The notes under the pieces are model-generated. The model did not search any database, was not told where the DNA came from, and worked only from the letters and a program-made list of their open reading frames with translations. Of a stretch of DNA of 18,667 bases, positions 1 to 18,317 are shown piece by piece; within the stretch, counting starts at the first letter, position 1, and each line of letters begins with the position of its first letter. The position numbers and the translations under genes were made by a program. The stretch is from Spirochaetota bacterium (GTDB lineage: Bacteria; Spirochaetota; UBA4802; UBA5550), in NCBI GenBank assembly GCA_050298055.1, contig JBNKTL010000064.1, positions 1 to 18,667 of the forward strand, given 5' to 3'.

Positions 1-121
1 ACGTGTCTTTATCAACGCAGACAGGGACTGTTTCGGGCATGTCGTCAAACATGCCGTTTATGATGTCCGAACAGGACAGGTTGAAAATTAACAGTATGGT
101 GACCGGAATTAACTTCTTCAT
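1..121 (-). CDS. Putative lipoprotein, 5' part only (runs off window)
   Basis: Hand translation MKKLIPVTILLIFNLSCSDIINGMFDDMPETVPVCVDKDT: basic N-terminus, hydrophobic stretch, lipobox-like NLSC. GGAG RBS upstream of ATG at 121. Co-oriented with the cluster. Confidence 0.75.
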   Translation of the reverse strand, partial: MKKLIPVTILLIFNLSCSDIINGMFDDMPETVPVCVDKDT

Positions 122-239: not shown

Positions 240-611
240 TCAACACTTCTTCGAAGCTGTTTTCACAATAGATGTTAAGATCCGGATCAACTGGTCAATG
301 TCCCTTAAATAGGGACTGTAATCAAGGTCCGCCATCTTCGATCTATCAAGCAGACAGAGCCAGTACCTGGTCTCTCTGGCCTCCTTCGACGCGATTGACA
401 TCTTCGATAAAAAGTCCTTTCTGCTCTGCGCCGCCTGTGCCTCCGCGGTATTCGCCCCGATACCTGTCCCGCTCCTCAATACCTGCTTTGAGATAATATA
501 TTCCCTCTTCTCCTGCAGCTTCTTATACAACTCAATAATGTCCAGTGCGAACTCAAAACACTTCTGCTCAATAATGTTGTTCTTTTTGATCCCGTTCATG
601 GTAACCTCCAA
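240..611 (-). CDS. Four-helix-bundle protein (TIGR02436 / 23S rRNA intervening-sequence protein family, Avd-like)
   Basis: Motifs KQVLRSGTGIGANTAEAQAAQSRKDFLSKMSIASKEARETRYWL. True start probably ATG at 599 (GGAGG upstream). Confidence 0.9.
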   Translation of the reverse strand: MEVTMNGIKKNNIIEQKCFEFALDIIELYKKLQEKREYIISKQVLRSGTGIGANTAEAQAAQSRKDFLSKMSIASKEARETRYWLCLLDRSKMADLDYSPYLRDIDQLIRILTSIVKTASKKC

Positions 612-707: not shown

Positions 708-2174
708 TCAAAACCTGATCCCCGCCGAGGGAGAGATTGAAAACCAGGACATCCCCCCCGATTCTTCACTGATATACCGGTAGTCGGCGGAAAGGGCGAA
801 AAACCAGAGGGAAACGTTCCAGCGGACCGTGAGTCCCGCGCCGAAGAGGGGTTCGAACCCCCCTGTTGTTTTTGTCTTTTGCGACGAGCTGGGAATATCG
901 AAATAGCTGTGCCTCTCACGGACATAACAGGCCCCGGCATAAACCGCCGGCGAGATCCGGAACATCTTGCGGATAGAGAAGGAATATCCCGCAAAAAGCT
1001 GCACCGGGGCGAGGACAATATCTTCCACATCGTTTTCCGGGACCCCGGAGATATTCTCTTTCCCCGGGAAGATAAGATACGAGGACTCGATCCCCAGGTC
1101 AAGGCAGGGGAGAAAGTAGTTGGACATCCCCACCCGGAGGGTCCCCCCGTAACCCGGTTTTACCGCGTCCTTCAAATTTCCCCGGGGCAGAACAAGGGCC
1201 GGGGAGACCGCCACGTTGATCTCGGGACGGTGGGAAATGTAGACACGGGCAATCTCCTCCGATTCCGTTTTTAAATTGTCGCTGCTTTTAATATAGATGA
1301 TGTCAAATTTCACGTCCTTTGACAAACGGTATGCCGTCTTTTTTGTTACGCCCAGGAGCGAGGTTTTGAAATTCAGCACCTTATAGAGCCTGTACTCCTC
1401 CACACTCCCGTCGGGGTCCGTGGCTTTCTCCCAGGTGATCTCGTAGTTCCCCCCGGAGTCCTTTGTAACGTCGGTTTTCCCGGGAGGCAGGGGGGGGATG
1501 TTCTTCGTCTTCAGCGTGAGTTCGTTGCTGGGGGAGGACTCGTAGTCGTCACTGTCCACGCTCTTCACGATGAAATAGTACTTCGTGTTGCTCTTCAGGT
1601 CCTCAAGGGAAATATGCTTGCTTGATGTGGACGCGATCTTTTTATATTCGCCCCTTTTTAGGGTTTTGGTATAGATATTATATTTTTTTACTTTATCGTA
1701 AGGAGGAAACCATGAAAGCTCCGCGTCGGTCATACCGGCCTCACCCTTGAGCCCCGAGGGGTTTTTTTCCGCCACGAAAAGGACATCGCTCCTCCTGAGG
1801 CTGAACTCCTTCGGGGAATAGAGCTTCTTTCTGCAGATATAGCTCTCCCTGTCCTCATCCACGATAAAGGCGAGGACGCTTGTGCCGTCGCGCTTCTGGA
1901 TATAGACCTTCCCCATCTTCAGTTCGGTATAGAGGATACGGAGAATATCCCCCCTCCGGATCACCTGCCTTTTCCCCTCCACCCGGGCAACAACTGTTCC
2001 GGGCCGGTCCGCGATAATTCTCCCCCTGATGATCTTCCCGTCTTTTAAAAAAATATACTCCGCCCCCAGAATCGACGGGTAAAAAATCATCAGAAAAAAA
2101 ACCATCCCATAGAACGTTTTATTAAAATCTTTTTTCATCCTCTGTTTCCCGTAACTCAAATTGTAAAACCTCAT
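708..2174 (-). CDS. Outer-membrane protein: signal peptide, tandem LA_0442-like (Sm-like) domains, fibronectin type III domains, C-terminal beta-barrel
   Basis: Signal peptide ending SILGA; EYIFLKDGKIIRGRII motif; FN3 signatures LSWFPP..YNIY..LKSNTKYYFIVKSVD..ES.PS and ITWEKATDPDG..EYRLY; amphipathic beta strands ending SPSAGIRF (terminal Phe). Start may be ATG at 2138. Confidence 0.8.
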   Translation of the reverse strand: MRFYNLSYGKQRMKKDFNKTFYGMVFFLMIFYPSILGAEYIFLKDGKIIRGRIIADRPGTVVARVEGKRQVIRRGDILRILYTELKMGKVYIQKRDGTSVLAFIVDEDRESYICRKKLYSPKEFSLRRSDVLFVAEKNPSGLKGEAGMTDAELSWFPPYDKVKKYNIYTKTLKRGEYKKIASTSSKHISLEDLKSNTKYYFIVKSVDSDDYESSPSNELTLKTKNIPPLPPGKTDVTKDSGGNYEITWEKATDPDGSVEEYRLYKVLNFKTSLLGVTKKTAYRLSKDVKFDIIYIKSSDNLKTESEEIARVYISHRPEINVAVSPALVLPRGNLKDAVKPGYGGTLRVGMSNYFLPCLDLGIESSYLIFPGKENISGVPENDVEDIVLAPVQLFAGYSFSIRKMFRISPAVYAGACYVRERHSYFDIPSSSQKTKTTGGFEPLFGAGLTVRWNVSLWFFALSADYRYISEESGGMSWFSISPSAGIRF

Positions 2175-2187
2175 TTTTAAAAGATTT

Positions 2188-2408
2188 AACCACGAAGATC
2201 ACGAAGAAGGATAATTGAACCGCAAAGGCGCAAAGGGCGCAAAGTTTATAAAGTTGAGTTATTTTATCAAAAAACAGTCTCTTTAATTTAACATTCAAAA
2301 TTAAAACTCAACATTATAAAAACTCTTCCTTCGCGCCCTTCGCGCCTTCGCGGTTCAATACTTTTCTTCTTCTCCCTCTTCAATTCAAAATTTAAAATTC
2401 AACATTAT
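2188..2408. repeat. Composite palindromic element: 31-bp GC-rich inverted arms enclosing a 16-bp inverted pair and heptamer arrays
   Basis: 2214-2244 attgaaccgcaaaggcgcaaagggcgcaaag versus 2329-2359 (28/31). 2245-2260 versus 2305-2320 (15/16). Heptamers at 2287-2314 and 2384-2407. Confidence 0.85.
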
Positions 2409-3308
2409 TTATCTCGATTCCGTCTGCCTGACCTTTTTCCCGTCAATGCTGATTATCCCCGAGGGGGTGATCATCCGTATCCTTCTCCCCCGGGAGAGGA
2501 TGGCGCCCTGATATTTCTTTCCGCTGTAGAGGGTGACCGTGTCAATCCTTCCGTATTCGGACCGGATATTTTCAAGGGTGAATTTCTTGCCCAGGATCCT
2601 GCCGATCTCTTTATCGATCCGCCTGTCGTTCTCCCGTATCTTTTCCCCCTCTTTCTCAAGCTTATCCTTCTCCAGGGAACCGGGATTTTTTCTTACCGGG
2701 ATATCTTCGATCTTCCCCAGGGTAAGTTTCTCAATGGCTGATATCTTCCGGCTTTTAAGGGTCCCGGTAACAAGGATGGTCTTCCCGGTGTCCGCGTACT
2801 TCTCTTTCCTGGAAGATATCTTTTCAACCTTCACCTTCCCCCGGGACACGGCCACCCTGCTGGTCCCGCTATTGTGTTCCGTTAGAAAAACCGTGCCCCG
2901 GACCGATGCCACTGCCGTGGGAGTCTTGATAACATAACGTTCTCCCTTCCTGAGCCGGGAAATTTTTGAGAGCACCATGCCCTTTGACAGGTAAAATTCG
3001 TTTTCACCGTGCCCGGTGATGGAGTTCAGCTTCACACGGGACTCCTGTTCAATCCTGAAAACGGTTTCCCCTCCAAGCTGGACAACAATAAACGATTTCT
3101 TCCCCGTTAAAATCATGTCCCCCTTCTTCAGGTGTTCTTTTATGTTCGCTTTCTGTTCATTCCCGTTCCGCTTAATTTTTACGTCGCCGAACAGAAAGGT
3201 CACAACGGCGTCTTCTCCCGTTATGTTTTTGCCGCAGCCGGGAAAAAAGATTAAAACCACGGCAAATGCCGCCGTATAAACCGTTATTCGTTTCTTTAGT
3301 TCTTTCAT
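2409..3308 (-). CDS. FecR-domain lipoprotein, LipL45-like, with shared C-terminal Sm-like domain
   Basis: Lipobox-like IFFPGC (Cys25); FecR motifs LKKGDMILTG, IKTPTAVASVRGTVF, VAVSRGKVKV; GAGG RBS. Confidence 0.85.
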   Translation of the reverse strand: MKELKKRITVYTAAFAVVLIFFPGCGKNITGEDAVVTFLFGDVKIKRNGNEQKANIKEHLKKGDMILTGKKSFIVVQLGGETVFRIEQESRVKLNSITGHGENEFYLSKGMVLSKISRLRKGERYVIKTPTAVASVRGTVFLTEHNSGTSRVAVSRGKVKVEKISSRKEKYADTGKTILVTGTLKSRKISAIEKLTLGKIEDIPVRKNPGSLEKDKLEKEGEKIRENDRRIDKEIGRILGKKFTLENIRSEYGRIDTVTLYSGKKYQGAILSRGRRIRMITPSGIISIDGKKVRQTESR

Positions 3309-3323
3309 AGCAAACCTCAGCTG

Positions 3324-3737
3324 TTATTCCAGTATTGTTCTCATTTTTACGTCTTCCATGGAGATCTTTTTCATCCCCTCTGTTGTAACCATTGTGTAGA
3401 CATCATCTATGGAGATCACCGCACCGGTGTAGCTTTGCCCGTTATAGAGGGTCACAATCTCCACCCTGCCGTATATCTGTTTGATCTCCTCTTTTGTTTT
3501 GATCCCGGTTCTCTTTCCGGTTGCTGAACCGGATTTTCCGGGCACCCTGTTTTCCTTTACTGTCTCCTCTATCATAAGGTCTCTCCCTTTTATTAAATTT
3601 CCGGGAGTTCCGGTCCTGCCGGCGGTTTTCCTCTCCCCTTTATTATTTCCGCTTTTCATAATCATCAAAGCGGCGGATAGACAGAGCAGCAGAAGGAACA
3701 TAACCGTCAGGATCAAAAAATTTTTCTTCGTTTTCAT
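3324..3737 (-). CDS. Small membrane-anchored protein: N-terminal anchor, linker, shared C-terminal domain; no FecR domain
   Basis: ORF track 3324..3773; ATG at 3737 preferred (GGAGG RBS). Hydrophobic FLILTVMFLLLLCLSAALMIM; C-terminal YGRVEIVTLYNGQSYTGA paralogous to both neighbours. Confidence 0.8.
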   Translation of the reverse strand: MKTKKNFLILTVMFLLLLCLSAALMIMKSGNNKGERKTAGRTGTPGNLIKGRDLMIEETVKENRVPGKSGSATGKRTGIKTKEEIKQIYGRVEIVTLYNGQSYTGAVISIDDVYTMVTTEGMKKISMEDVKMRTILE

Positions 3738-3777
3738 CTTTCCCCTCCGGGTATCAACAGGTCTTCCGGTCAATACC

Positions 3778-4908
3778 CTATTCTATTATCCTCACATTCT
3801 TTACTTCTTTAGCCCTCACCCTTCTGACCCCTCCCGGGGTAATAATGGTAAAGAACCTGCCCCGTGAGGTAATGGCGCCTGTATATACTCTTCCGTTATA
3901 GAGCCGGACCTCCTCCAGCCGCCCGTATTTTTTCCTGATATCGTCAAGTGTTGTGATCCCGCTTCTCTTTTCCTTTTCCGTCTTTTCGCTCATCACGGCC
4001 ATGACAGCTTCACGCAGTTCATTCGTCTCAATAGCGCTTAAATTTTCCCTGTATTTCAGCCTGCCGATTTTTTGCAGCAACTGCATTTCCCGTGAACCGG
4101 TCTTTACCGGTTTTTTCACAGTTGATATTCCCCTGATCACGGCGCTCTGCCCCTTTTCCACCCGGATCTCATAATTTTTCACAAGGTTGGTCACCTTTAC
4201 CGCCCCCTGGGACACGGTCACCCTCGTTGTTTCCTTTTCATAGCTTATGCCGAACCCCGTTCCCGCCACAACAGCCACGGCGTTAGGTGTTATGACACTG
4301 AACATTTCACCTGTTTCCAGGGGTATGACTTTGCACAAAAGGGTCCCCCTTTCCAGTGAGAGTGACTTTCTTTTCAATCCGATCTCCACGGAAGCAGTGC
4401 TCCGGGACTCCACGCTTACAAGACTTTTCTTCATTTGAAAGAGGAGCCTGCCCCCGGGGCCGGTCATGATTTTGTCCCCGGTAATAATCCTCTCCTTTGT
4501 CCCCACTGCCGCTATCTCTCTTTTATTCCTTGTGATCTTCACTGCGCCCTCGGCCAGAAGAATGAAGCCCTTCCTGAATTCGGGGATCCCGGTCACGGGC
4601 CCTCTTCCCGTTCCATAGTCGTAGAAGACCGTCAGAGATGACGATACGATCACCAGGAACACGATGACCGATGCTGCCGCGAACGCCCGGGCCCCTCCCG
4701 CCAGTGTTGTCTTTATTCCGATCCTGTTGAGGAGATGCTCGAAAAAGACCGCGGCGTGCACCAGTGCGGAATCGTATATTTCGCTTTTAACTATTTTTGA
4801 TAATGCCTTTCGTTTCGCTTTGAATATTCTCCTCCTGTCATAAGAGGAAAGAGGTGATGTAAGCCTGTACTTTTCAATGATCTCTTCCAGTACACCTGTT
4901 CTTTTCAT
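3778..4908 (-). CDS. FecR-type anti-sigma factor: cytoplasmic N-terminus, one TM helix, FecR domain, shared C-terminal domain
   Basis: TM AFAAASVIVFLVIVSSSLTVFY; FecR motifs TGDKIMTG, VITPNAVAVVAGTGFGI, VTVSQGAVKV; ATGA overlap with sigma-factor stop at 4905-4908. Confidence 0.85.
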   Translation of the reverse strand: MKRTGVLEEIIEKYRLTSPLSSYDRRRIFKAKRKALSKIVKSEIYDSALVHAAVFFEHLLNRIGIKTTLAGGARAFAAASVIVFLVIVSSSLTVFYDYGTGRGPVTGIPEFRKGFILLAEGAVKITRNKREIAAVGTKERIITGDKIMTGPGGRLLFQMKKSLVSVESRSTASVEIGLKRKSLSLERGTLLCKVIPLETGEMFSVITPNAVAVVAGTGFGISYEKETTRVTVSQGAVKVTNLVKNYEIRVEKGQSAVIRGISTVKKPVKTGSREMQLLQKIGRLKYRENLSAIETNELREAVMAVMSEKTEKEKRSGITTLDDIRKKYGRLEEVRLYNGRVYTGAITSRGRFFTIITPGGVRRVRAKEVKNVRIIE

Positions 4909-5462
4909 AGCAGATCACCCAGTTCTTTGATCCCTTTTTCCCGGAGTCTCGATAATATCTTTTCGCAGATCCTGTTATACCTGTACCGCGCCTGTTTATA
5001 GTTAAGCTTTAAATGCCTGGCCGCTTCGGCAATGCTGTACCGGTAAACGGCAACCAGCTGAAAGATGGAATCGTCCCCGATTTCATCTCCGCGGCATTCA
5101 TCACTGATCTCATCAATGACCCGGGAGATCACCACCCGCGCTTCTTTAAAACCATTAACGTATCCCATATCTATATCGTTTAAAAGTGAATCCAGATCTT
5201 CATGGCCCCTGTTCCTCTCCTTGTAAAAATCCAGAACAACGATTCTGAGACATCCCAGGAGCCATTTCCTCGGGTTGTTGATCTCATCAAGCTTCCTGTA
5301 AAACCTGATGAAAACCTCCTGGCAGATATCTTCGGCATCGTGATAATTGTTGATGCGGGAATAGACAATGCTGAACACCAGGGAATAAAATAAATGGTAA
5401 TGTTTTGTAAAATTTTCAACCTTCGGGTCTGCAAGCGAACCGGTAAGTTTCACTGTTACCAC
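4905..5462 (-). CDS. ECF-type RNA polymerase sigma factor
   Basis: Region 2 motif DAEDICQEVFIRFY..PRKWL and region 4 HTH YSIAEAARHLKLNYKQARYRYNR; ~185 aa; directly upstream of FecR gene. Start may be GTG at 5453 (GAGGTGG upstream). Confidence 0.85.
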   Translation of the reverse strand: MVTVKLTGSLADPKVENFTKHYHLFYSLVFSIVYSRINNYHDAEDICQEVFIRFYRKLDEINNPRKWLLGCLRIVVLDFYKERNRGHEDLDSLLNDIDMGYVNGFKEARVVISRVIDEISDECRGDEIGDDSIFQLVAVYRYSIAEAARHLKLNYKQARYRYNRICEKILSRLREKGIKELGDLL

Positions 5463-5615
5463 CTCTGTCTTTCATATTTACAGTAGGAAAAACGCGGAAA
5501 AATTCCCCAAAAAAAATACATTTGCGCTGTTTTTTAATAAAATATCCGCCACGAAGACACAGATCTTAGAAAGAACTATGTGTATCTACAGGGAACTACT
5601 CAGATATATGATTTT

Positions 5616-5784: not shown

Positions 5785-6969
5785 TTACATCTCCGGATCA
5801 AAAACCGATATCCCCTTATTGTTTGTTTCCTGGATACACAGCTTTTCCCCGCACCGGACGGCCCTTCTGTATTGAAGAGAGGGGCTCTTTTTTAAACCGC
5901 CCTTTCTTGAATAGTGATAGGTCCCATCCATCTTATGAAAGAAAACAAAACATCTCCCGGACGTACAGGAAAAGAGTGTGGAAGGGGGATAATTCCTCTT
6001 CCCCAGGGTCATGAGTTTTTTAACCGGCCGAAGATCTCCCGGCCTGGCGCCGGCCTCCCCTTCCCAGACCATGTTGCCGTACTGTAAAAGCAGAAAGAGC
6101 CGGGGACCCGTATGGATAAACTTTGCCTTCAGTTCATTTATCGTGTCCCCGCTGATCCGGAGCTTTTTGATTGTAAAACTTTTCCCCGCAGGGGACCGGA
6201 AGGCGTAGAAAAATGAAGCGCGGCGGGGTGTTTTGCCGTAACAGGGGGCTTCGGCCCAGAGGAGACGGATACCCTGCCGGTCAACAAAAAGGTCCCCGCT
6301 TAGCACACAGGAATTATCCGGAAGATCTCTCCCCGCCATGAGCTCCTCGGTGCTCCCGTCCGCTTTTGCCCTGATGACCCTGAGTGTCCCGTCATGAACA
6401 AGCAGAAAGACCTCTTCGTTATAATAGCCCAGCGCCAGGTCCGTGAATGACATGTCCGTTTTAACCAGATGCCCCCCGGGCACCCGGAACGTTTTTATTG
6501 TCTTCAACGGCCCTTTATGGCCGAAGACACGGCAGATGAGATTGTTTTCCTTCGTGAGATAGGCCACTCCGAAGCTGTCCCCGGCTTCAAAAAAATCCCT
6601 TGTGATGTTGCCTTCCTTTTTATAAAGGACCTGCGGCCTGCCGGATAACTGCCCGAGGTCACGGTCAACCACTGCGGCGTAAAGGACTGTGGTAAAGAGG
6701 GTACGGTTGATGGCCCCGAATCCCGTTTCCCTGTAGGGGACACTGAACAGGACGCCCCATTTCCCCTCCATGGACACAAACGAAGTCCGGATATTGAGAG
6801 TCATGGGCTCCCGGGACGCGGTCCGGTCGGGAGAGAAGAAGAAGGATTTCCTCTCCTTTACCAGCCTGACGTTCTCATAGGTGACAGGGGAACTGCAGGA
6901 GAGGGAAAGCGTCACCCCGCAAAAAAGTATTGATAACCATCTCCCGAACAATGAGCGTTTTCCTTTCAT
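5785..6969 (-). CDS. Hypothetical lipoprotein, beta-rich
   Basis: 394-aa ORF; basic N-terminus, hydrophobic region, LSLSC lipobox-like motif; GGAG RBS. No family recognised. Confidence 0.7.
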   Translation of the reverse strand: MKGKRSLFGRWLSILFCGVTLSLSCSSPVTYENVRLVKERKSFFFSPDRTASREPMTLNIRTSFVSMEGKWGVLFSVPYRETGFGAINRTLFTTVLYAAVVDRDLGQLSGRPQVLYKKEGNITRDFFEAGDSFGVAYLTKENNLICRVFGHKGPLKTIKTFRVPGGHLVKTDMSFTDLALGYYNEEVFLLVHDGTLRVIRAKADGSTEELMAGRDLPDNSCVLSGDLFVDRQGIRLLWAEAPCYGKTPRRASFFYAFRSPAGKSFTIKKLRISGDTINELKAKFIHTGPRLFLLLQYGNMVWEGEAGARPGDLRPVKKLMTLGKRNYPPSTLFSCTSGRCFVFFHKMDGTYHYSRKGGLKKSPSLQYRRAVRCGEKLCIQETNNKGISVFDPEM

Positions 6970-7089: not shown

Positions 7090-7800
7090 TTATTTTTTCA
7101 CTCCTTTGATGACCCGGGGTATCTCACCCCCGAAAACCGACAGGGCGGCCTTTACTGCGTCACAACTGTTCTCCCGCAGAGAAGCCTGTATAACATCGCT
7201 GTCAGCAGGAAACCCGCAATACTCCTTCAGGTAAACAGCAAGAGAGGAAGACGTTTCTCCTGAGATGTTTCCCGCCAGCCGGTTTTCAAGCTGCTGAAGC
7301 TGTGACGCGAAACCGATGTTGGGAAGCACATCAAATCTCTTTTTCTTCACCAGCCTGAATGATTCTAAAAAACTTCTCTTTTCCCTCATCATGATCAGGG
7401 CAATCATAAATGCCGCAGATCTGCTTACCCCAGCCTCACAGTGGACCAGGAGCTTTTCATCTGTACTTTGCGAGAGGAAACGGTGAGTGAAATTGAAGAA
7501 GGCATCCAGCGAAGAGAGGATATCTTCATAAATACCATCATGGACTTTCAGGAAAAGATGAATAAAATTATCTGCCAGGAAATCAACCTTCGGCCTGCTG
7601 CTTTCATCAAGACAGCTCACGACATGAGTGATCCCGGTTTTTTTCAAAAGCCCAAGGGAATCCACACGGGGCAGAGAGCCGAGATAGAGATTATTCCTGA
7701 TTTCACTGAGTCTGCTGCCGGTAGTACGGACAAGATCGGCAAAATCCGGAACAAGGGAGGAAAGGAGAAATTTAACTATCCTGTTAACCGTTTCAATCAT
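7090..7800 (-). CDS. Dual-specificity protein phosphatase
   Basis: Catalytic loop LVHCEAGVSRSA, plus NLYLGS, GITHVVSC and PNIGFASQL motifs; GAGGAG RBS. Confidence 0.9.
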   Translation of the reverse strand: MIETVNRIVKFLLSSLVPDFADLVRTTGSRLSEIRNNLYLGSLPRVDSLGLLKKTGITHVVSCLDESSRPKVDFLADNFIHLFLKVHDGIYEDILSSLDAFFNFTHRFLSQSTDEKLLVHCEAGVSRSAAFMIALIMMREKRSFLESFRLVKKKRFDVLPNIGFASQLQQLENRLAGNISGETSSSLAVYLKEYCGFPADSDVIQASLRENSCDAVKAALSVFGGEIPRVIKGVKK

Positions 7801-8240
7801 TATGACTCCTCTGCATCAGTAAAAGCAGCGAATACAGATAAATATCATTGTCAAAGTTTATGAGAAAAAATCAAGGACCATTTTGGGATAATGTTTCTCT
7901 TTCTATCCACAGGTTTGCCATTACTTAATTTATCTTGACGACAACGGTCCTGTGGGAAGGATTAAGGAAACCTGTAGAGAAGTTTATTAAGCTCCAAACT
8001 CAGATCACACCGTCGCTTCACTCCATGAGATGACACAGGACAAAATAAACATCATCCCGGCAAAAATAATAAAAAAATTGTTGAGAAAATATGAAATTTT
8101 TGATAATAATTGGTTGCATTTAAACAGGATAAAATTATTTGTTATTTGTAATGAAAAAACCTGTTTTTTTAGCAAAACAAGACTTATATTTCATGTTTCC
8201 AGCCTGCAGCAAATAATACCTTCGGAGGACTTTCACTGAC

Positions 8241-10499
8241 ATGGACATATATCTCTTCATTGTTGTTTTACTCCTGTCCCTGGGAATTTTCGGGATAATC
8301 GTGGGAGTAAGCAATGATGCCGTTAACTTTCTTAATTCATCCATAGGCTCAATGGTGGCCCCCCGGAATATTATTTTTCTGGTGGCAAGCATCGGGATTC
8401 TGACGGGTGTCACCTTCTCCAGCGGCATGATGGAGGTGGCACGAAAAGGGATCTTCCATCCCAAATTTTTCACAATGCCGGAACTGATGGTCGCCTTCCT
8501 GGCCGTAATGCTTGCCAATGTACTCCTTCTCGACCTCTTCAATACCTTCTCCCTTCCCACTTCAACAACGGTTTCCATTGTTTTTTCTCTCCTGGGAGCG
8601 GCAGTGGGAATTTCATTGATCAAGATCTCTTCAACGGGCCAGGAATATTATCTCCTGGTAAGATATATTAATACGGCAAAAGCTCTGACCATCATTATGG
8701 GGATCATCCTGTCGGTGGGCATCGCCTTCGTATTCGGGGTGGTCATCCAGTTTATCACGCGGTTTATTTTTACCTTTGATTACGAAAAGAGAATGAAAAA
8801 ATACGGGGCGCTCTGGGGAGGAACGGCCCTTACCACTATTATCTTTTTCATCCTGTTAAAAGGCGCCAGGGGATCGTCATTTCTGACACCTGAAATTCTG
8901 GACTTCATCCAGTCTCATCTGATTACTATCCTGATATTCACATTTCTCATTTTAGTCGTCATTTTACAGATAATAATACTCTTCACACAAATAAACATAC
9001 TGGTCATGGTCGTCCTTGCAGGAACTTTCGCCCTGGCTATGGCCTTTGCCGCAAACGACCTGGTCAATTTCATAGGCGTTCCTCTTGCCGGCCTAAACGC
9101 GTATACCATTGCCAGCTCCAGCGGTGATATGACCAATACTCTCATGCTGGGAATGCAGAAAAAAATTCAGACAAACACATTTATCCTTCTGGCGTCCGGA
9201 GCGGTCATGGTGGCAACACTCTGGTATTCACGAAAAGCCCAGTCCGTGGCAAAAACGGAAGTGGACCTGAGCCGGCAGGACGAGGGTACGGAAAGATTTG
9301 ACGCCACCCTGGTTTCCCGGGGGATAGTCAGAATGGTCTCCTCGCTCTTTGAAATGGTCCGGGTCATCATTCCGGAGAATATGGCAAACAAAATATCACA
9401 GCGTCTTGACATAAAAGCATATAAACCGGTCATACAGAAGGACGGGAGGACCCCTTCCTATGATCTTCTCAGAGCTTCGGTAAACCTCGTTGTTGCCAGC
9501 GCCGTTGTGTCATTTGCCACATCAATGAAACTTCCCCTCTCAACAACTTATGTGACCTTCATGGTTGCCATGGGGACCTCTCTCTCCGACCAGGCCTGGG
9601 ACAGGGAGAGCGCCGTATACCGGGTATCGGGCGTTTTAACGGTCATTGCCGGATGGTTCATGACAGCCGTCATTGCGTTTACCGTGGCCCTTGCTTTTTC
9701 CTATTTCATCCACTATTACAAGGTTCCCGCGATTATCATCTTATTACTTCTGACAGTGTTCCTCATTTACAGGTACCATCACATCCATTCTCACAGGGCA
9801 AAGAAACATGAAGAGATGGAAGTCTTTAATCTCATAAAAGTTACCGATCCTGAATCTGCCATCAATACAACATTTGAACACAGCGGACTTTTCCTCAGTG
9901 AAGTCAGGGATGTTGTCTCCCAGACATTTGACGGGATCTTTTCGCAAAACAGGCAGGAGTTGAGAAGACTGAGAGACGAATCCTCGAAAATCCAGAGATG
10001 GGCAAATATTATTATAGCCAACACCTTCAAGATACTTCGTCTTCTTTACCAGGCGGATATTGAACATACAACAAATTATTCCCATACAATCGGCGCGCTG
10101 CAGGAGATCGCGGAAAGCGTGAGGGACACTGCCGTCAGGTGTTACGTCCACGTAAATAACAATCACAAGGGGCTTCTCGACATTCAGATTGCCGAACTGA
10201 AAGAGATCAGCGAATGCATTGTAAAACTTCTTGACTACACATCCCGGGCTCTTCATAAAAAGCACGCGGTAAACTTTAAAGAAGTTGAGAAAATAAATAC
10301 ACGGCTCAGTGAACTTGCCAGAGAGTTTGATCAAAACCAGATCAAAAGGATCCAGGATGAGTCATCAAAAACCCGCCTCAGCATTCTCTTTTACGGACTT
10401 CTCGGAGACGTCATGAAGATATCCGAAGAGACTCTTGTACTGCTCAATATATTCCATGATTCATTTAAAATCAATAAAAAGAAACGGAGAACCAACTGA
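8241..10499 (+). CDS. PiT-family inorganic phosphate transporter with C-terminal PhoU-like helical domain
   Basis: GVSNDAVNFLNSSIGS, LPTSTT, AANDLVNFIG and LPLSTTYVTF PiT signatures; many TM segments; soluble helical C-terminus; GGAGG RBS. Confidence 0.9.
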   Translation: MDIYLFIVVLLLSLGIFGIIVGVSNDAVNFLNSSIGSMVAPRNIIFLVASIGILTGVTFSSGMMEVARKGIFHPKFFTMPELMVAFLAVMLANVLLLDLFNTFSLPTSTTVSIVFSLLGAAVGISLIKISSTGQEYYLLVRYINTAKALTIIMGIILSVGIAFVFGVVIQFITRFIFTFDYEKRMKKYGALWGGTALTTIIFFILLKGARGSSFLTPEILDFIQSHLITILIFTFLILVVILQIIILFTQINILVMVVLAGTFALAMAFAANDLVNFIGVPLAGLNAYTIASSSGDMTNTLMLGMQKKIQTNTFILLASGAVMVATLWYSRKAQSVAKTEVDLSRQDEGTERFDATLVSRGIVRMVSSLFEMVRVIIPENMANKISQRLDIKAYKPVIQKDGRTPSYDLLRASVNLVVASAVVSFATSMKLPLSTTYVTFMVAMGTSLSDQAWDRESAVYRVSGVLTVIAGWFMTAVIAFTVALAFSYFIHYYKVPAIIILLLLTVFLIYRYHHIHSHRAKKHEEMEVFNLIKVTDPESAINTTFEHSGLFLSEVRDVVSQTFDGIFSQNRQELRRLRDESSKIQRWANIIIANTFKILRLLYQADIEHTTNYSHTIGALQEIAESVRDTAVRCYVHVNNNHKGLLDIQIAELKEISECIVKLLDYTSRALHKKHAVNFKEVEKINTRLSELAREFDQNQIKRIQDESSKTRLSILFYGLLGDVMKISEETLVLLNIFHDSFKINKKKRRTN

Positions 10500-10504
10500 G
10501 ACCC

Positions 10505-12316
10505 ATGAACGTTAACAAGATACCCCGGAGAGATGAGATTGGACCAGGGGAAAAGTGGGACCTTACCCCCCTTTTTGGAACAGATGAAGAGTGGGAGGCC
10601 CTCTACGGGGAAGTGGAATCCCAATCGGGACAGTACGAAAGCTACAGGGGGCGTATGGGAGAGTCCCCGGAGCTTTTCAAAGAAACCATTGAATTTGACC
10701 TTGAGATGTCCCGAAAACTTGACAGGCTCTACACCTATGCCCACCTGAAAAACGACGAAGACAAGACTAACCAGCAGTATACCGGGGTTTACCAGAGGGC
10801 AATAAATCTCTACATGAGGATATCGGAACTCTCAAGCTTCATTACGCCGGAAATCCAGTCCCTGCCGGAAGAGAAACTGAATTCCTCTGTGAATGCCACC
10901 GGGATGAAGGAGTACAGCTTCTACCTTGAGAAGATCATCAGGTACAGGCCCCATACCCTTTCCCGGGAGATCGAGAAGGTACTCTCCATGTCCGGCGAAA
11001 TGGCCCAGGCCCCGTCGGAAATTTTCAGCCAGCTTGATAACGCGGACCTGACCTTCGGGGAAATTGAAGATGAGGAGGGGAGGAAGCATGAACTGAGTCA
11101 CGGGAACTACAACACATTCCTGATGAAAAAAAACAGGGAGCTGCGGGAGAAGGCGTTCAGGCAGTATTATAAATCGTATCACGACCTCAGGCACACAATT
11201 TCCGCATCCCTTGCCCATTCCAATAAGAAGGACTACTTTTACGCCCGGGTGAGGAACTTTAAAAGCTGCCGTGAAGCGTCCCTCTTTTCCGACAACATAT
11301 CCGGCCATGTCTACGACAATCTGGTCTCAAGCATAAGAGACAACCTCGCTCCCCTTTTCAAGTATCTCACTTTCAGGAAAGAGACCCTGGGTCTTGACGA
11401 GCTTCACTTTTACGATACTTATGTCCCCCTTGTGGAGAACATCGATTTTTCCATGGAATACGACGAAGCGGTTGATGTCTGCGTAAAGGCCCTTGCTCCC
11501 CTGGGTGAAGAGTATACGGATATCTTAAAAGAAGGCCTCCGGGGAAGCTGGGTGGACAGGTACGAGAACAAAGGCAAACGAAGCGGGGCCTATTCTTCGG
11601 GCTGTTACGACTCTCCTCCCTATATCCTTATGAACTATGAGAAGAACAATATCAACAGCCTCTATACCCTTATCCACGAGGCAGGGCACTCCATGCACTC
11701 ATTCTACTCAAAGAAAGAGCAGCCCTATGTGAACTCCCAGTACACAATTTTTGTGGCCGAGGTGGCTTCCACATTCAACGAGACCCTCTTAAGCAACTAC
11801 CTTCTGGATTTTTACGATGATAACCCGGGCATGAAGGCATACATTCTGAACAGGGAGATTGACAACATACGGGGGACCCTCTACAGGCAGACCATGTTTG
11901 CCGAATTTGAAAAGCTCACCCATACGGCAGTTGAAGAGAACAAACCCCTGACCCTTGAATTCATGCAGTCCGAATACCGAAAGCTCCTGGAGGCATACTT
12001 CGGCGATACACTGGTCATTGATGATGAACTCTCCCTTGAGTGTCTTCGAATACCCCATTTTTATTCGGCATTCTATGTTTATAAATACGCAACGGGAATA
12101 TCCGCCGCCATAACCCTGGCCCGGAAGGTCCTTTCCCGGGACGTGAGCGCGAGAGATTCATATATCAATTTCCTCAAACAGGGAGGGAGCACTTTTCCCC
12201 TGGACCAGTTGAAGGAAGCAGGTGTTGATATGCAGAGTCCGGAACCGGTTAAAAACGCCGTGGAGTACTTTGACAGCCTGGTTGACAGGTTTGTTGAGAC
12301 CTGCCGGTCGGTTTGA
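10505..12316 (+). CDS. pepF: Oligoendopeptidase F (M3B)
   Basis: KWDL N-terminus, GKRSGAYS, zinc motif HEAGHSMH, IFVAEVASTFNE, RIPHFY..FYVYKYATG. Confidence 0.95.
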   Translation: MNVNKIPRRDEIGPGEKWDLTPLFGTDEEWEALYGEVESQSGQYESYRGRMGESPELFKETIEFDLEMSRKLDRLYTYAHLKNDEDKTNQQYTGVYQRAINLYMRISELSSFITPEIQSLPEEKLNSSVNATGMKEYSFYLEKIIRYRPHTLSREIEKVLSMSGEMAQAPSEIFSQLDNADLTFGEIEDEEGRKHELSHGNYNTFLMKKNRELREKAFRQYYKSYHDLRHTISASLAHSNKKDYFYARVRNFKSCREASLFSDNISGHVYDNLVSSIRDNLAPLFKYLTFRKETLGLDELHFYDTYVPLVENIDFSMEYDEAVDVCVKALAPLGEEYTDILKEGLRGSWVDRYENKGKRSGAYSSGCYDSPPYILMNYEKNNINSLYTLIHEAGHSMHSFYSKKEQPYVNSQYTIFVAEVASTFNETLLSNYLLDFYDDNPGMKAYILNREIDNIRGTLYRQTMFAEFEKLTHTAVEENKPLTLEFMQSEYRKLLEAYFGDTLVIDDELSLECLRIPHFYSAFYVYKYATGISAAITLARKVLSRDVSARDSYINFLKQGGSTFPLDQLKEAGVDMQSPEPVKNAVEYFDSLVDRFVETCRSV

Positions 12317-12346
12317 TTCCGGCCAGTAAGGTGGGAATTTATTATC

Positions 12347-12388
12347 TTGACAAAAAAAAGGGATTTTCCGGAAATATATCCGGAAAAT
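12347..12388 (+). promoter_or_regulatory. TTGACA -35 box followed by a perfect 10-bp inverted repeat (candidate operator)
   Basis: TTGACA at 12347-12352; ATTTTCCGGA-N6-TCCGGAAAAT at 12363-12388 over the expected -10 position; no canonical -10 seen. Confidence 0.45.
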
Positions 12389-12413
12389 GAAATTCCTGTC
12401 ACTGGAGAGATAA

Positions 12414-12553
12414 ATGTCAAAATACAAGCTTAACGGCGCAAAATTTGAGACCCTGGAGGAGCTGAAAAATCACTCTGGGAACTCTATAAAGATAAAATGT
12501 CCGAAGAAGAATTTAATAACTATGTTGATGAAAATGTGGAAAAAAGCGAATAG
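12414..12553 (+). pseudogene. Small acidic protein (46 aa) interrupted by an apparent 1-nt deletion in an A5 run
   Basis: GGAG RBS and ATG at 12414. Adding one A at 12465-12469 gives MSKYKLNGAKFETLEELKKSLWELYKDKMSEEEFNNYVDENVEKSE ending at TAG 12551-12553, which avoids the overlap with the next gene. Confidence 0.55.
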
Positions 12554-12595
12554 CCTCTCTTCTTTTCAAATCCCGCCTGCAAATCCATACAAACA

Positions 12596-13225
12596 ATGTC
12601 ACTCTTAATTCATGAAATTTTCAGGTCCATAGAGGGCGAAACATGCTGGTCGGGTTTCCCTTCGGTTTTTGTAAGGCTTGCCGGCTGCAATCTCCGCTGC
12701 AGCTCCTGTGATACTCCCGGCTCAAGAAAAAACGGAAGAGAGAAGGAGATCCCCGCAATAATCAATGAAGTAAAGGAGCTGGGCCCCGTACACCATGTCA
12801 CTGTTACCGGGGGAGAGCCCCTCTGCCAGGACGAAACACCGCTCCTCATGAGAAAACTGATCTATGAAAAATACCGGGTCCAGCTGGAAACAAACGGGAG
12901 CTTTCTTCTCTCCCCGGTACCCTCCGGGGTCCGGAAAATCGTGGACGTGAAAACCCCTTCAACCGGAGAAGCGGGTTCCTTCCAGGAGGAAAACCTGGAA
13001 TATATTGATGAAAATGATGAATTAAAGTTCCTGATCTGCAACAGGGGAGACTACGAGTTTTCAAAAAAATTTATCGGGAAGTACCTGGAAGAAACCGTGA
13101 CAGTTATTAATTTTGCCCCGGTTTATAAAAAAATGAAATATGATAAATTGTCAGAGTGGATACTTGAAGACAATCTCAATGTGCGGCTTAATCTCCAACT
13201 CCACAAAATCATTAATGTGAGATAG
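12596..13225 (+). CDS. queE: 7-carboxy-7-deazaguanine synthase-like radical SAM enzyme
   Basis: IHEIFRSIEGE, FVRLAGCNLRCSSCDT, VTGGEPL, LETNGS, DVKTPS, RLNLQLHK. Confidence 0.8.
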   Translation: MSLLIHEIFRSIEGETCWSGFPSVFVRLAGCNLRCSSCDTPGSRKNGREKEIPAIINEVKELGPVHHVTVTGGEPLCQDETPLLMRKLIYEKYRVQLETNGSFLLSPVPSGVRKIVDVKTPSTGEAGSFQEENLEYIDENDELKFLICNRGDYEFSKKFIGKYLEETVTVINFAPVYKKMKYDKLSEWILEDNLNVRLNLQLHKIINVR

Positions 13226-13229
13226 TGAA

Positions 13230-14108
13230 ATGAATTACGTGGGTAATATTATCAGGCCTCCCAGTGAAGCGGACAGCCTTATATTACAGGTAACCGTGGG
13301 CTGCTCCCATAATATGTGCACATTCTGCGGCACGTACAAGGATGTGAAGTTCCATTTAAAGGAACGGGAAACAATCGAGAGGGATATTAATGAGGCTGCC
13401 GGATACGGTTACCGGTTCAGGAGGGTATTTCTCGCTGACGGCGATGTCCTTATCCTTCCTACAGAGACAATTCTGGAGATCATTGCCGCAATTAACCGGA
13501 AGATCCCCGGCATAGAGAGATTCGGGGTTTATGGAAACACAAAGTCCATACTGAAAAAGAGCCCCGGTGATCTCCGGGAACTGAAGAACGCAGGCCTGGG
13601 GATTGTCTACCAGGGAATTGAGAGCGGCTCAATGGATGTACTGAAAAGAATAAAAAAGGGCGCGTCTCCCCACAGGATGAGAGAGGCGGCAGATAAGGTC
13701 ATGGCTGCGGGAATACTTCTCTCACAGACAGTGATCCTGGGGATAGGGGGCACGGAACTCAGTACGCAACACGCGGTGGAAACCGGCAGGCTTCTGGGAG
13801 AGATGTCCCCCGATTACGCATCGGCCCTGACCCTGATCCTGGTCCCGGGAACAGGTCTCCACACTGAATATGAGAAAGGCAGGTTCAGTCTCCCTGACAG
13901 GTTTGGTCTCCTTAATGAACTGAGACTTATCATAGAACAGATGAACGTAAAAAAGAGATGTTATTTCACGTCAAACCATGCTTCAAACTACCTTCCCGTC
14001 AAGGCCGCACTCCCCGGCCAGAAAGACAGGGTGCTCAAGCTCCTTAACAGCGTCATAGAGAGCAGGGACGAACAGGTTTTGAAGCCGGAATATATGCGCG
14101 GCCTCTAA
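13230..14108 (+). CDS. Radical SAM protein of unknown substrate
   Basis: IIRPPSEADSLILQVTVGCSHNMCTFC, RVFLADGD, GIESG, SNHASNYL. Confidence 0.9.
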   Translation: MNYVGNIIRPPSEADSLILQVTVGCSHNMCTFCGTYKDVKFHLKERETIERDINEAAGYGYRFRRVFLADGDVLILPTETILEIIAAINRKIPGIERFGVYGNTKSILKKSPGDLRELKNAGLGIVYQGIESGSMDVLKRIKKGASPHRMREAADKVMAAGILLSQTVILGIGGTELSTQHAVETGRLLGEMSPDYASALTLILVPGTGLHTEYEKGRFSLPDRFGLLNELRLIIEQMNVKKRCYFTSNHASNYLPVKAALPGQKDRVLKLLNSVIESRDEQVLKPEYMRGL

Positions 14109-14169
14109 AAATCAAAAAACATCTTGATCATCATTCATCATTTCCCTATAATAATGGGAGGATGATGGG

Positions 14170-15759
14170 ATGGGAAGAACTTTTAAAAGCTTTTTCAACA
14201 CAATCCAATTCAGGACCGTTGCTTCCGGAGTAATTGTCCTGTTCCTGGTTGGTTTCGGAATTTCTCTCCTTGCCCTGAAGTCTCCTGAGGGCTGTTCCCC
14301 GGTCAGAGACTTAACGAAAAATTTAAATCTCACGGACAAGGCCTCATACCATTACAAGCTCACGGGGCCCATCCTTTTTATTGCCCTGATAATGATTATT
14401 TACTCCCTGAAGACTTTCATCAGGTCACCTTTCAACCGGGCCATTAATCCAATGCGAAAAGATGAGTATCCTGAATGCAGGGGAATAAACGAATTCCGGT
14501 TACAGCGCGGCAAGATAAGGAAGTTGATGACCATTATAGAGGAGCAAAATGAAAAGATAAGCGGCCTCGGCAGTGAGCTCCACAGGGCAAAGGAAGACGC
14601 GGCTGCCGCAGGTGAACTGAAGAGCCAGTTTCTCGCGAACATGAGCCACGAGATAAGGACTCCCCTTAACGGGATACTTGGAATGGCGGACCTTGTTCTC
14701 GATACCGAAATGAACATAGAGCAGCAAGAATATCTTACTATGATAAAATCCTCGGGGATGAGACTTCTGCTTGTTATCAATGACATCCTCGACTTTTCAA
14801 GAATTGAAGCGGGAAAAATGAGCCTTGAGACAACGACCTTCAGCCTCAGGAAAAGGCTTCTGGACACATTCAACCTGATGAAGGTGAGTGCCGTGAAGAA
14901 AAAAATCGGATTTTCATACCAGGTTGAAGATGACGTTCCGGACATGCTTACCGGTGATCCCAACAGGCTGCTCCAGGTCATCTTCAATCTTTTAAGCAAT
15001 GCGATAAAGTTTACCGACAAAGGAGAGGTCGGAATATCCGTAAAATCGGATTACGAGAACAGAGAAAAAAACTTCGTATTACTTCACGGCATTGTAAGTG
15101 ATACAGGTATCGGGATACCCGGGGAGAAGCAGGGCCAGATATTCAACGCCTTCACCCAGGCAGATTCATCACATTCCCGTCAGTACGGGGGGACCGGAAT
15201 CGGGCTTTCAATATCATCCGGTCTTGTCCGGCTTATGGGAGGGAAGATATGGTTTCACAGCATAGCCAACAAGGGTTCCCGGTTCCACTTCACTGCACGA
15301 TTCAGGGTTGAGCATGATATCACAAGAGAAGAACCCCTGCCTGCTCCGGGAAAATCCCCAATACCCGGGCCGGTCACCGATGAGAATGAATACCGTATTC
15401 TCCTTGTGGAAGATGAAAGAATAAACAGGATGCTCGCGGAAAAAATAATGCTCAAACAGGGGTGGAATGTTACACCTGCACGGAACGGGGAAGAGGCACT
15501 CATTGCCTGGAACACAGGCGGATTCAATCTCATTGTCATGGACATACAGATGCCGGTCATGGATGGGTTTGAGGCCACTGGAGCCATCAGAAAAGCGGAA
15601 AAAGAAACGGGGGGCCATGTCCCCATTATTGCAATGACAGCCCATGCCATAAAAGGGGACAGGGAAAAATGTCTCGCCGCGGGAATGGATGACTATTTAT
15701 CCAAGCCAATTGCTCCGGATAAATTTATTTCAACACTCTCCCGTTACCTGGACACTTAA
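14170..15759 (+). CDS. Hybrid sensor histidine kinase / response regulator
   Basis: Two N-terminal TM segments; H box [16 protein letters not shown] box [22 protein letters not shown]; receiver [10 protein letters not shown] and AMTAHA..DDYLSKP. Confidence 0.95.
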
Positions 15760-15793
15760 AGTGTATGAGAAAAGTGACGTTGAGAAAAAATCC

Positions 15794-15904
15794 CGTAACA
15801 ATTCAGCTATGTGTAAAAACTGACATGTTTAATGAACAAAATAAAACTGATGTGTCCCCGCCGCCGAAGGCGGCGGGGACACATTGTTTATAGTTTATGG
15901 AACA
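15794..15904. repeat. Palindromic element copy 1 (16-bp perfect stem, GAA loop); may also act as terminator for the kinase gene
   Basis: atgtgtccccgccgcc-gaa-ggcggcggggacacat at 15850-15884; imperfect arms extend about 15826-15904; left-end motif cgtaacaattcagct at 15794-15808. Confidence 0.85.
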
Positions 15905-16019
15905 AAAACCCTCAAGAGAGAAATAAATTTATATTGCAAAAAAATCCCATCAATTTTAACTGGTTTCTCAGTGATGATAATTTTATGGCCTCATGCAAGC
16001 CAGTTAAGCGGAGAAACCT

Positions 16020-16187
16020 ATGAGTGATGAGATAAGAGATGCAGTGAAGTATATTTCAAAAGAGATACTGCATAATCCCGGTACAGATATCAATAAACTG
16101 GTAGAATCTGCCTGCCTGAAATTCGACCTGAACCCCCTTCAGGCGGACTTTCTTGTGAACAAGTTTATCACCGAAAGAAAAGAATAG
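16020..16187 (+). CDS. Small hypothetical protein (55 aa), not in ORF track
   Basis: GGAG RBS; MSDEIRDAVKYISKEILHNPGTDINKLVESACLKFDLNPLQADFLVNKFITERKE; amphipathic helical pattern. Confidence 0.75.
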   Translation: MSDEIRDAVKYISKEILHNPGTDINKLVESACLKFDLNPLQADFLVNKFITERKE

Positions 16188-16726
16188 ACCTGCTTTTCCA
16201 TTGCCCTTTCACAACCTGCCACAATCTTCCCGGAAAGCTCTTCAAAAAAGCGGAAATAGTCAGTGTCGCCGTCAATATCAAATTTTATGAAGATAAAGTC
16301 GTCCTCCGCCCTTTTATAGAGTATCAGCCTGCAGGTATACCTTATCTTTGCCCTGATCTCCTTAATACTCTTATTGAAACTCTTTGATTCCAGAGATCCT
16401 GATACAGCATAGTCCGCCCTGAAACGGATGCAGTATCTTTTCAGAACATCCCTGTTCAATGTCCGTGTGTAAGATTCAGGTTTTTCCCTGAACACCCGTT
16501 CATATTCCATAACAGGCACTATGGGGTACTCTCTTTTCCGGAACTTCCAGAGCACCCTCTCCCGGAGAAGTCTGTTCTGAATGTCATTAATGACACCTGA
16601 TTCAAAACCGAAGACCAGGACCTTCCCTTTTTCGCCTCCCGCCTCCAGGGGCCGGGAGAAAAGGATCAGAAGGAAAACAGCCAGAACCGGGACCATGTGC
16701 CTCTTCTTTAAAGTGATTTTCATCAT
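16139..16726 (-). CDS. Exported hypothetical protein, possibly CsgG/FlgO-like alpha/beta fold
   Basis: Signal peptide ending PLEA; VLVFGF and ADYAVSGSL patterns; GGAG RBS; downstream of and co-oriented with the pyrophosphorylase gene. Confidence 0.65.
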   Translation of the reverse strand: MMKITLKKRHMVPVLAVFLLILFSRPLEAGGEKGKVLVFGFESGVINDIQNRLLRERVLWKFRKREYPIVPVMEYERVFREKPESYTRTLNRDVLKRYCIRFRADYAVSGSLESKSFNKSIKEIRAKIRYTCRLILYKRAEDDFIFIKFDIDGDTDYFRFFEELSGKIVAGCERAMEKQVYSFLSVINLFTRKSA

Positions 16727-16767
16727 TATGCTATCTCCCTCGATCCACCGGCATCAATGAAACCTTT

Positions 16768-18144: not shown

Positions 18145-18175
18145 ACAACTCTCCTGAATTTTTTTCTTGTGAAAA

Positions 18176-18317
18176 CGTAACAACTCAGCTCTATTGTTAA
18201 AAATAATTGTATTTACTAAAATGTTAACGATATGTCCCCGCCGCCGAAGGCGGCGGGGACATATCGGTTATGTTTTTAATGAATACGATTATTCTTATAC
18301 ATAGCCGATTAATTGCG
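18176..18317. mobile_element. Palindromic MITE/REP-like element copy 2 (~142 bp, 18-bp perfect central stem)
   Basis: cgatatgtccccgccgcc-gaa-ggcggcggggacatatcg at 18228-18266; left end cgtaacaactcagct is 14/15 identical to copy 1; degenerate inverted right end at 18317; symmetric about 18247. Mobility is inferred. Confidence 0.65.

Follow-up and report, generated by a model that had tools for sequence, protein, structure and literature searches.

At one end of a stretch of Spirochaetota DNA 18,667 nucleotides long (assembly GCA_050298055.1, contig JBNKTL010000064.1; "the window" below means this whole stretch) lies a set of genes that resembles bacterial cell-surface signaling: a sigma factor of the extracytoplasmic function (ECF) type, an anti-sigma factor bound to the membrane, and an outer membrane (OM) protein that carries a small β-barrel. 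Five open reading frames (ORFs), all on the minus strand between positions 708 and 5,462, together with their family matches, bear out the initial annotation, which had listed a co-oriented ECF sigma factor, a FecR-type membrane protein, a small membrane protein, a FecR lipoprotein, and an OM protein with fibronectin type III (FN3) domains and a barrel. The sigma gene (4905..5462, 185 amino acids; PF04542 at 44 bits, TIGR02937 at 40.5 bits against a cut-off of 42.9) may truly start a few codons inward of 5462. Its stop overlaps the start of the predicted anti-sigma gene as ATGA, in agreement with the translational coupling proposed earlier. The anti-sigma (3778..4908) comprises a cytoplasmic N-domain, a transmembrane helix (residues 76–94), a FecR domain, and a C-terminal Sm-like domain (3781–3951). 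There follow a small membrane-anchored protein (3324..3737) made of a transmembrane helix, a low-complexity linker, and an Sm-like domain; a LipL45/Lsa33-like FecR lipoprotein (2409..3308) with its Cys at residue 25, a GT at residues 138–139, and again an Sm-like domain at its C terminus; and the OM protein, whose gene ends at 708. Because of their ribosome-binding sites, 2138 and 3737 are the likely true starts of the OM gene and the small-protein gene.

The FecR family (PF04773) matches the anti-sigma at 51 bits and the lipoprotein at 54.7 bits, and 16 such matches occur in the genome; the lipoprotein also matches NF047849 (89.5 bits) and NF033165 (60.6 bits), both under cut-off. The GT motif of the anti-sigma FecR domain, G216–T217, is invariant in 88 aligned sequences and is the predicted site of self-cleavage, and an RseP-family gene is present in the genome. 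What unites the three middle proteins is the domain at their C termini, as had been noticed from the start: the copies show 41–42% identity to that of the anti-sigma, with z scores of 16–25 that none of 1,000 shuffles reached. All of these C-domains also have an N-terminal helix-like segment. A single-sequence search found the domain in 2 proteins among 39 candidates, and a profile found it in 422 clusters. Within the top 150 representatives it is C-terminal, and its carriers are 55 FecR lipoproteins, 25 anti-sigmas, and 27 small membrane proteins, the rest being fragments and others; the domain occurs on unrelated proteins too. The C-domain profile found no match among solved structures.

The OM protein, modeled whole with a predicted local distance difference test score (pLDDT) of 89.6, is predicted to have two small β-domains (N1 and N2, 1758..2066), two FN3 spacer domains (1239..1769, seen both as a family match and in the model), and an eight-stranded barrel (708..1238, residues 313–488) that ends in Phe. 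The barrel is of the OmpA/OmpW/NspA kind, with structural matches at Z 17–20, among them NspA 1p4t (Z 18.7, root-mean-square deviation [rmsd] 2.9 over 150) and OmpW 2f1t (Z 17.9, rmsd 2.7 over 163). The two similar segments with which the protein had been said to open are indeed there, and the N1 and N2 profiles match each other with a probability of 96 and an E value of 2e-9. Folded alone, N1-N2 reaches a pLDDT of 94.9 and a predicted template-modeling score (pTM) of 0.81, and in this model both domains have the Sm/Hfq fold: N1-N2 fits Hfq 2qtx at Z 8.0 and rmsd 1.0 Å over 46 residues, N2 fits LSm domains at Z 6.5–6.7, and the top 50 structural matches are mostly Hfq, Sm, or LSm, with the SH3-like domain of BirA tying at Z 8.0 (a Z under 8 may reflect just a common arrangement). 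Weak NCBIfam matches of homologues to Hfq (E 5e-4) and RimP agree with an Sm-type fold. Foldseek returned only FN3 proteins for the whole model and nothing under E 0.001 for N1-N2, for which Tudor and Hfq were best; ESM Atlas held no match at or above 0.9 for either domain. Conservation within the OM protein is also highest in N1-N2, with a mean column identity of 67% vs. 49% (from overlapping, nonidentical sequence sets). Among the relatives, one copy in the same genome (L005:2890-4197) has N1 and most of N2 joined to unrelated sequence, with no barrel, and resembles a deletion that fused an OM gene to its lipoprotein gene; in three other loci (L039, L040, and L046), the OM gene is broken into two ORFs by a frameshift or an assembly error.

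These two sets of domains belong together, much as the initial annotation had supposed. The C-domain profile matches that of N1 with a probability of 80.7 (E 1.3e-5), rising to 89.5 (E 2e-6) with a deeper alignment, so that the anti-sigma ends in a homologue of the domain with which the OM protein begins. The same correspondence recurs in other cassettes, and in some of them, it has changed fold. In the same genome, contig C27 has a sigma, anti-sigma, and OM gene; C30 a sigma and anti-sigma; and C21 a FecR lipoprotein, a short OM protein, and lipoproteins. Two more cassettes, on C42 and C84, have the same families of sigma, anti-sigma N-domain, and barrel as the Sm cassettes, and yet there the anti-sigma C terminus and the barrel N terminus are both of the CsgG/FlgO-like kind (on the barrels, PF03783 exceeds its cut-off); compared as disjoint profile sets, the anti-sigma and barrel versions match with a probability of 98.8. 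We surveyed the 100 top-ranked loci of about 157 with a match to the anti-sigma N-domain, setting aside those already included and three at contig ends. From these 100 and the C42 and C84 cassettes, 96 anti-sigmas were called, six loci giving none, and a partner was defined as a pairing-domain gene within the next four co-oriented genes. Among the 45 anti-sigmas with a partner, 11 are Sm with Sm and 34 are CsgG-like with CsgG-like (25 with a barrel match); none is mixed. The pairing domain has thus been swapped in concert on the anti-sigma and the barrel protein. Three anti-sigmas (L101, L201, and L236), which have an Sm domain alone in the periplasm and no FecR domain, adjoin Sm-barrel genes.

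As to spread, the anti-sigma N-domain family is found in 66 of 95 genomes of the window's order. The 47 loci with related barrel genes all come from Spirochaetota metagenome-assembled genomes. The N1-N2 profile finds matches in 176 of 401 genomes of the phylum and 65 of 79 in the order; by family, the counts are 75 of 75 (weakly) in f15, 0 of 38 in f19, and 1 of 50 in f21. The survey also turned up other arrangements. CsgG-type cassettes with a sigma, an anti-sigma, and a CsgG-like domain joined to a barrel (for instance, L104:3580-6986 and L105:383-2983) are the commoner form in the order, and a 155-amino acid protein at C34:47264-47731, which has the CsgG-type anti-sigma C-domain and no sigma-binding part, may correspond to the small Sm protein. 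In seven loci (L153, L167, L168, L179, L181, L207, and L235), a sigma and an Sm-only anti-sigma are consistently followed by a 617- to 639-amino acid protein, by eye an acetyl-CoA hydrolase/transferase fused to an acetyltransferase, with no OM partner nearby. Two loci (L165:3732-4679 and L217:1422-2378) have a signal-peptide protein of about 315 amino acids with no Pfam match after anti-sigmas that lack a recognized C-domain, possibly a third pairing type.

What might the sigma factor control? Of 12 sigma genes, 6 have a bipartite motif, GGnAATT then TCTACT, on their 5′ side. When a matrix built from these six sites is applied at a threshold score of 14 or more, it finds 10 of 38 stand-alone OM genes and none of 175 other genes; a scan for sigma-70 promoters stayed at chance level (10 vs. 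7.9). The window's predicted ECF-type promoter (5481..5508, minus strand, read from 5508 to 5481; −35 block GGGAATT, −10 block CCTACT), itself a training site, scores highest in the genome. The motif suggests that the sigma controls its own gene and a set of barrel-lipoprotein pairs. For SigX of Leptospira interrogans, control of its own expression and of three lipoproteins is reported, by way of a motif unlike this one (PMC7708080).

The OM gene is not the last of the operon. The five genes of the initial annotation are all there, but they are not the whole unit: the promoter just described and a lipoprotein gene downstream had been overlooked. The 5′ part of the latter (1..121, running from 121 to 1) encodes an acidic amphipathic helix after the lipoprotein Cys and is cut off by the contig end. 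Lipoproteins of this sort are regular neighbors of the barrel. Of 52 barrel ORFs, 48 have a next gene, and 41 of these 48 carry a lipobox by our own regular expression, compared with 224 of 3,609 ORFs genome-wide and 48 of 410 other genes in the loci. The helix after their Cys has a moment of 0.43 vs. 0.24 when shuffled; in a leave-one-out test against 252 background lipoproteins, 39 of 42 exceed the background's 95th percentile, and the window's own scores 11.4, where that percentile is −6.3. Beyond the helix, the 42 scanned lipoproteins vary (β-helix, BspA LRR, Big_2, GLUG, FG-GAP, Lcl_C, FGE-sulfatase, LamG, DUF285, propellers), and these variable adhesin-type domains suggest that they are probably on the cell surface. 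Tether helices that are more alike go with Sm domains that are more alike (49 pairs; partial r 0.28, p about 0.008); for the barrel, which we also considered, such covariation finds no support (partial r −0.06). Contig C12 opens with a near-identical paralogue of the window lipoprotein, here a β-helix (Chlam_PMP) protein, and an N-truncated paralogue. An array of β-helix and other lipoprotein genes there (L103, C12:1-7200) is probably the continuation of the window operon; that the window's contig end (C64) joins C12:3-1808 is a guess, and no DNA contig bridges the two.

No TonB-dependent receptor lies in the loci screened from the window's order. The STN domain (PF07660) has no match in this 98% complete genome, with controls positive in 4 of 14; PupR 6ovk matches the FecR part of the anti-sigma and nothing beyond; and the genome's two TonB-dependent receptors lie elsewhere and have no N-terminal extension. 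Among the order-level loci, this screen covered L001–L053 and L083–L102, not L138–L237. The claim that such pairs do without a receptor holds to that extent, but not for three Leptospira-like loci described below. Family f15, which we read as Leptospiraceae because Leptospira-named families score above cut-off there, supplied 11 sigma loci, picked by NF047528 score and representing few orthologue groups. In 9 of the 11, an adjacent gene has a related, Lepto_7-type N-domain, and the anti-sigma C termini match the window's C-domain with a probability of 94.4 and N1 with 95.9; three neighboring lipoproteins, when tested, all lay above the SrpBC cut-off. The Lepto_7 N-domain family itself (NF047433, cut-off 43) gives 36.8 bits for the window's OM protein and 44.1, 61.3, and 66.1 bits for paralogues in its own genome.

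From the kinds of domain, how they fold and are related, the order of the genes, the joint swap of the pairing domain, the promoter motif, and the pairing of barrels with lipoproteins, we propose, with moderate confidence, that the ECF sigma, the FecR-type anti-sigma, and the eight-stranded barrel protein form a TonB-independent signaling link through an Sm/Hfq-fold clasp in the periplasm and that this link controls the operon and variable lipoproteins. Binding, topology, proteolysis, and stimulus are modeled by analogy on PupB/PupR and FoxA/FoxR. The Sm domain of the anti-sigma would extend, by an edge strand, the tandem Sm domains that the OM protein projects on its FN3 spacer, and the clasp would protect the GT-self-cleaved anti-sigma and keep the sigma off. 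A change at the barrel—docking, ligand binding, traction on its lipoprotein, or faulty assembly—would break the clasp, whereupon RseP-type proteolysis would free the sigma to transcribe the operon and the stand-alone barrel-lipoprotein pairs, and more barrels and lipoproteins would be made. The FecR lipoprotein and the small protein, which have the same domain and no sigma-binding part, could serve, where present, as competitors or adaptors and so set the threshold. We count in favor of such a clasp the concerted swap, which by analogy parallels the STN–STN pairing of TonB-dependent signaling; the Sm-only anti-sigmas beside Sm-barrel genes; the presence in one genome of both pairing types on the same sigma, N-domain, and barrel families; the absence of STN; the RseP-like gene; the invariant GT; the promoter motif; and the Leptospira-like loci with the same logic.

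Several observations weigh against this proposal. Sm-type Z scores of 6–8 are near background for small β-barrels; the Sm fold of the C-domains is predicted from profile homology to N1; and C-domain and N2 profiles show no direct significant match, even with the deeper alignment, so that the link to N2 is indirect. Of the 96 anti-sigmas, 51 have no partner within about 5 kb. A quick tree of pairing labels (78 rows) has four changes, of which well-supported branches force just one, and with so few independent swaps (one to four), the Fisher p of 1e-10 overstates the case. Among the 47 barrel loci, the sigma pair is present in only 8 and any C-domain protein nearby in only 11, compared with the 41 of 48 in which a lipoprotein is next. 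In the Leptospira-like loci, neither the sigma nor the N-domain is a clear orthologue of the window's, the OM-side anchor is different and by eye includes no eight-stranded barrel, and the second gene after the anti-sigma in three of the 11 (L069, L073, and L077, which are orthologous) encodes a TonB-dependent receptor carrying a CarboxypepD_reg domain. Finally, FecR lipoproteins of L. interrogans are reported to be partly surface-exposed (PMC13719327).

The scarcity of the sigma pair beside barrels, set against the constancy of the lipoprotein, which is the most constant feature of these loci, invites the thought that the barrel protein is an export or display partner of the adjoining lipoprotein, monitored or supplied by the sigma pair, with the Sm–Sm contact secondary. 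The conservation of the amphipathic helix across unrelated passenger domains fits this idea, as does the finding that tether similarity tracks N1/N2 (rho 0.35–0.39) more than a signal-peptide control (0.15) and does not track the barrel (0.08), although shared ancestry may account for the covariation. N2, moreover, resembles Edc3-type LSm domains, which bind short helices. But an eight-stranded barrel is too narrow for the passage of a folded protein, similar helices also follow CsgG-type barrels that have no Sm domains (lipoproteins make up 11 of the 26 next genes there, six of them above the tether threshold), and export alone leaves the matched swap on the anti-sigma unexplained. We therefore think export unlikely as the principal role, even with a precedent in Bacteroidetes, where an acidic export signal after the Cys is known (PMC5080379).

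The initial annotation went further than a two-partner clasp and had all five small β-domains co-assemble, which as a single hetero-ring would join the anti-sigma to the OM protein, the lipoprotein, and the small protein. Rings are a common assembly of Sm folds, N1-N2 is predicted to be a packed unit (as its pTM suggests), and three C-domain carriers are co-transcribed both in the window and in L007–L009. That version is not borne out by the comparison of loci: the small protein is present in 3 of 47, some cassettes have only the sigma, anti-sigma, and OM genes (C27 and L029), and others only the FecR lipoprotein and OM protein (C21, L031, L033, and L036). That CsgG-like and STN versions exist in parallel also suggests matching in pairs, and a ring of fixed composition now seems to us improbable. 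Since many cassettes have no small protein, no FecR lipoprotein, or no FecR domain, a clasp between two partners, to which further carriers may be added, is the better fit. One might also suppose that the shared domain is just a recycled periplasmic cap or stability module on co-regulated proteins that do not bind one another, the anti-sigma sensing a distant TonB-dependent receptor or envelope stress. The half of the anti-sigmas that have no nearby partner, the domain's presence on unrelated proteins, and the receptor near some Leptospira-like loci would all be at home in such a scheme. The lack of even one mixed cassette among 45 would not be, nor would the high conservation of N1-N2 (with the same overlap of sequence sets) or the want of an N-terminal extension on the genome's two receptors, and we rate it very improbable.

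How does the proposed clasp compare with systems already described? With the FecI/FecR/FecA type (including PupI/PupR/PupB and FoxI/FoxR/FoxA), it shares an ECF sigma encoded together with a single-pass FecR (CJM) anti-sigma that has a GT motif, an anti-sigma C-terminal subdomain homologous to the N-terminal domain of the OM protein, and autoregulation, here predicted. The C-terminal STN of PupR is described as homologous to the signaling domain of PupB (PMC7186176), and contact with FoxA as protecting and stabilizing the anti-sigma FoxR (PMC11637429). The pairing domain of that type is STN, however, whereas that of the window has the predicted Sm/Hfq fold and that of its paralogues is CsgG-like; there, the OM partner is a linked TonB-dependent transducer with a signaling domain, whereas here, it is an eight-stranded barrel with no plug and with FN3 spacers, accompanied by extra carriers of the domain and a variable lipoprotein. 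The system would work like Fec-type signaling, yet it has no STN and no linked transducer, and it is not a Dma either. In Dma1, according to its report (PMC10927553), an anti-sigma is likewise tied across the periplasm to an eight-stranded OM barrel, with lipoproteins in the regulon, but Dma is one polypeptide with a disordered tether, and the window and related loci use two genes, whose link is predicted to be noncovalent. We are reasonably inclined, if well short of certain, to see here a split, noncovalent counterpart of Dma1 that works like cell-surface signaling.

PUMA3 of Pseudomonas aeruginosa (VreA/VreI/VreR; PMC2729926) also resembles surface signaling without a full TonB-dependent receptor; VreA is described as having the canonical signaling domain and no barrel, whereas the window has a barrel and a domain of another fold. 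With Sm, LSm, and Hfq proteins, the N1 and N2 models share the five-stranded fold, at the Z scores and rmsd given above, and unlike them, the window's domains, known from sequence and models, are predicted to be periplasmic and are fused to membrane anchors. Slam, or type XI lipoprotein secretion, uses a 14-stranded barrel with a TPR domain; the window's barrel has eight strands and no TPR.

Leptospira has systems of a similar kind. With SigX/Rsx (LIMLP_03680/03685; PMC7708080), LIC12757/LIC12756/LIC12758 (PMC12155086, PMC13118517), and LipL45, the window has in common a FecR-like anti-sigma that ends in a homologous small domain, an adjacent gene with the Lepto_7 (NF047433) N-domain, and a lipoprotein regulon, here predicted; the stimulus of the Leptospira systems is reported as unknown. 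The window proteins score far under the cut-offs (27.8 bits against a cut-off of 200 for Rsx, NF047528; the 60.6 bits for LipL45, NF033165, against 350), the sigma N-domain family is different, and the partner, mostly divergently transcribed, has a disordered linker and a helical anchor, where the window has FN3 domains and a barrel. Leptospira is said to have no TonB-dependent receptor with a signaling extension, and the input to its FecR-like anti-sigmas is called unknown (PMC12155086, PMC13118517, PMC7708080); the FecR clade ECF242 is described as linked to TonB receptors except in Spirochaetes (PMC7826278). LIC12758, which has a Lepto_7 domain, has been hypothesized on STRING evidence to be a member of the LIC12756/LIC12757 system (PMC13118517), so that the neighbor was already floated in print; neither the match between anti-sigma and partner domains nor the Sm fold is noted in the accessible text of PMC7708080, PMC12155086, and PMC13118517. 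A literature search, whose scope lay outside subscription papers and supplements, returned no description of this architecture or of an Sm fold in it.

The rest of the window can be dealt with briefly. Between the OM gene and the lipoprotein gene, a four-helix-bundle gene (240..611, minus strand; TIGR02436 at 103.6 bits) is flanked on both sides by AT-rich dispersed repeats, has no counterpart at the same position in related loci, and is probably a passenger. The AT-rich intergenic repeats, at 135–240, 612–707, and 2180–2408, each have 27–77 BLAST matches in the genome, include an inverted repeat with 31-nucleotide arms (2214–2359), and recur on contig C12; a depth spike goes with them. On the other side, two exported-looking proteins (5785–6969 and 16139–16726) match nothing in Pfam or NCBIfam; the second is CsgG/FlgO-like by eye and gave no score with our profiles. 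The ordinary neighbors at 7090–18183 are a dual-specificity phosphatase, a PHO4-family transporter, an oligopeptidase F, two radical SAM proteins, a hybrid histidine kinase, and a UDPGP-family enzyme.

If the clasp is real, the Sm/Hfq fold, so familiar from RNA biology, would be at work in the periplasm, and LipL45-type proteins would have to be reinterpreted. There would be a general rule, whatever the fold, by which an anti-sigma ends in a domain of the same kind as the one that opens its OM partner, and a specific candidate contact for the FecR-like anti-sigmas of Leptospira, whose input the papers call unknown. The acidic helix would be a candidate signal for the sorting or docking of spirochaete lipoproteins. 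More tentatively, and here we would put the chances somewhat below even, one may imagine a modular, transporter-free form of sensing in which swappable surface lipoproteins dock by their acidic helix on the small barrel, the barrel protein extends through the periplasm on its FN3 spacers, and a matched and exchangeable domain pair, Sm/Hfq-fold or CsgG-like where Fec systems have STN, clasps the anti-sigma. Were that so, Sm domains would be codes for pairing proteins in the periplasm, LipL45 would be a periplasmic modulator, and the Lepto_7 proteins would provide the input still missing for the FecR-like anti-sigmas of Leptospira.

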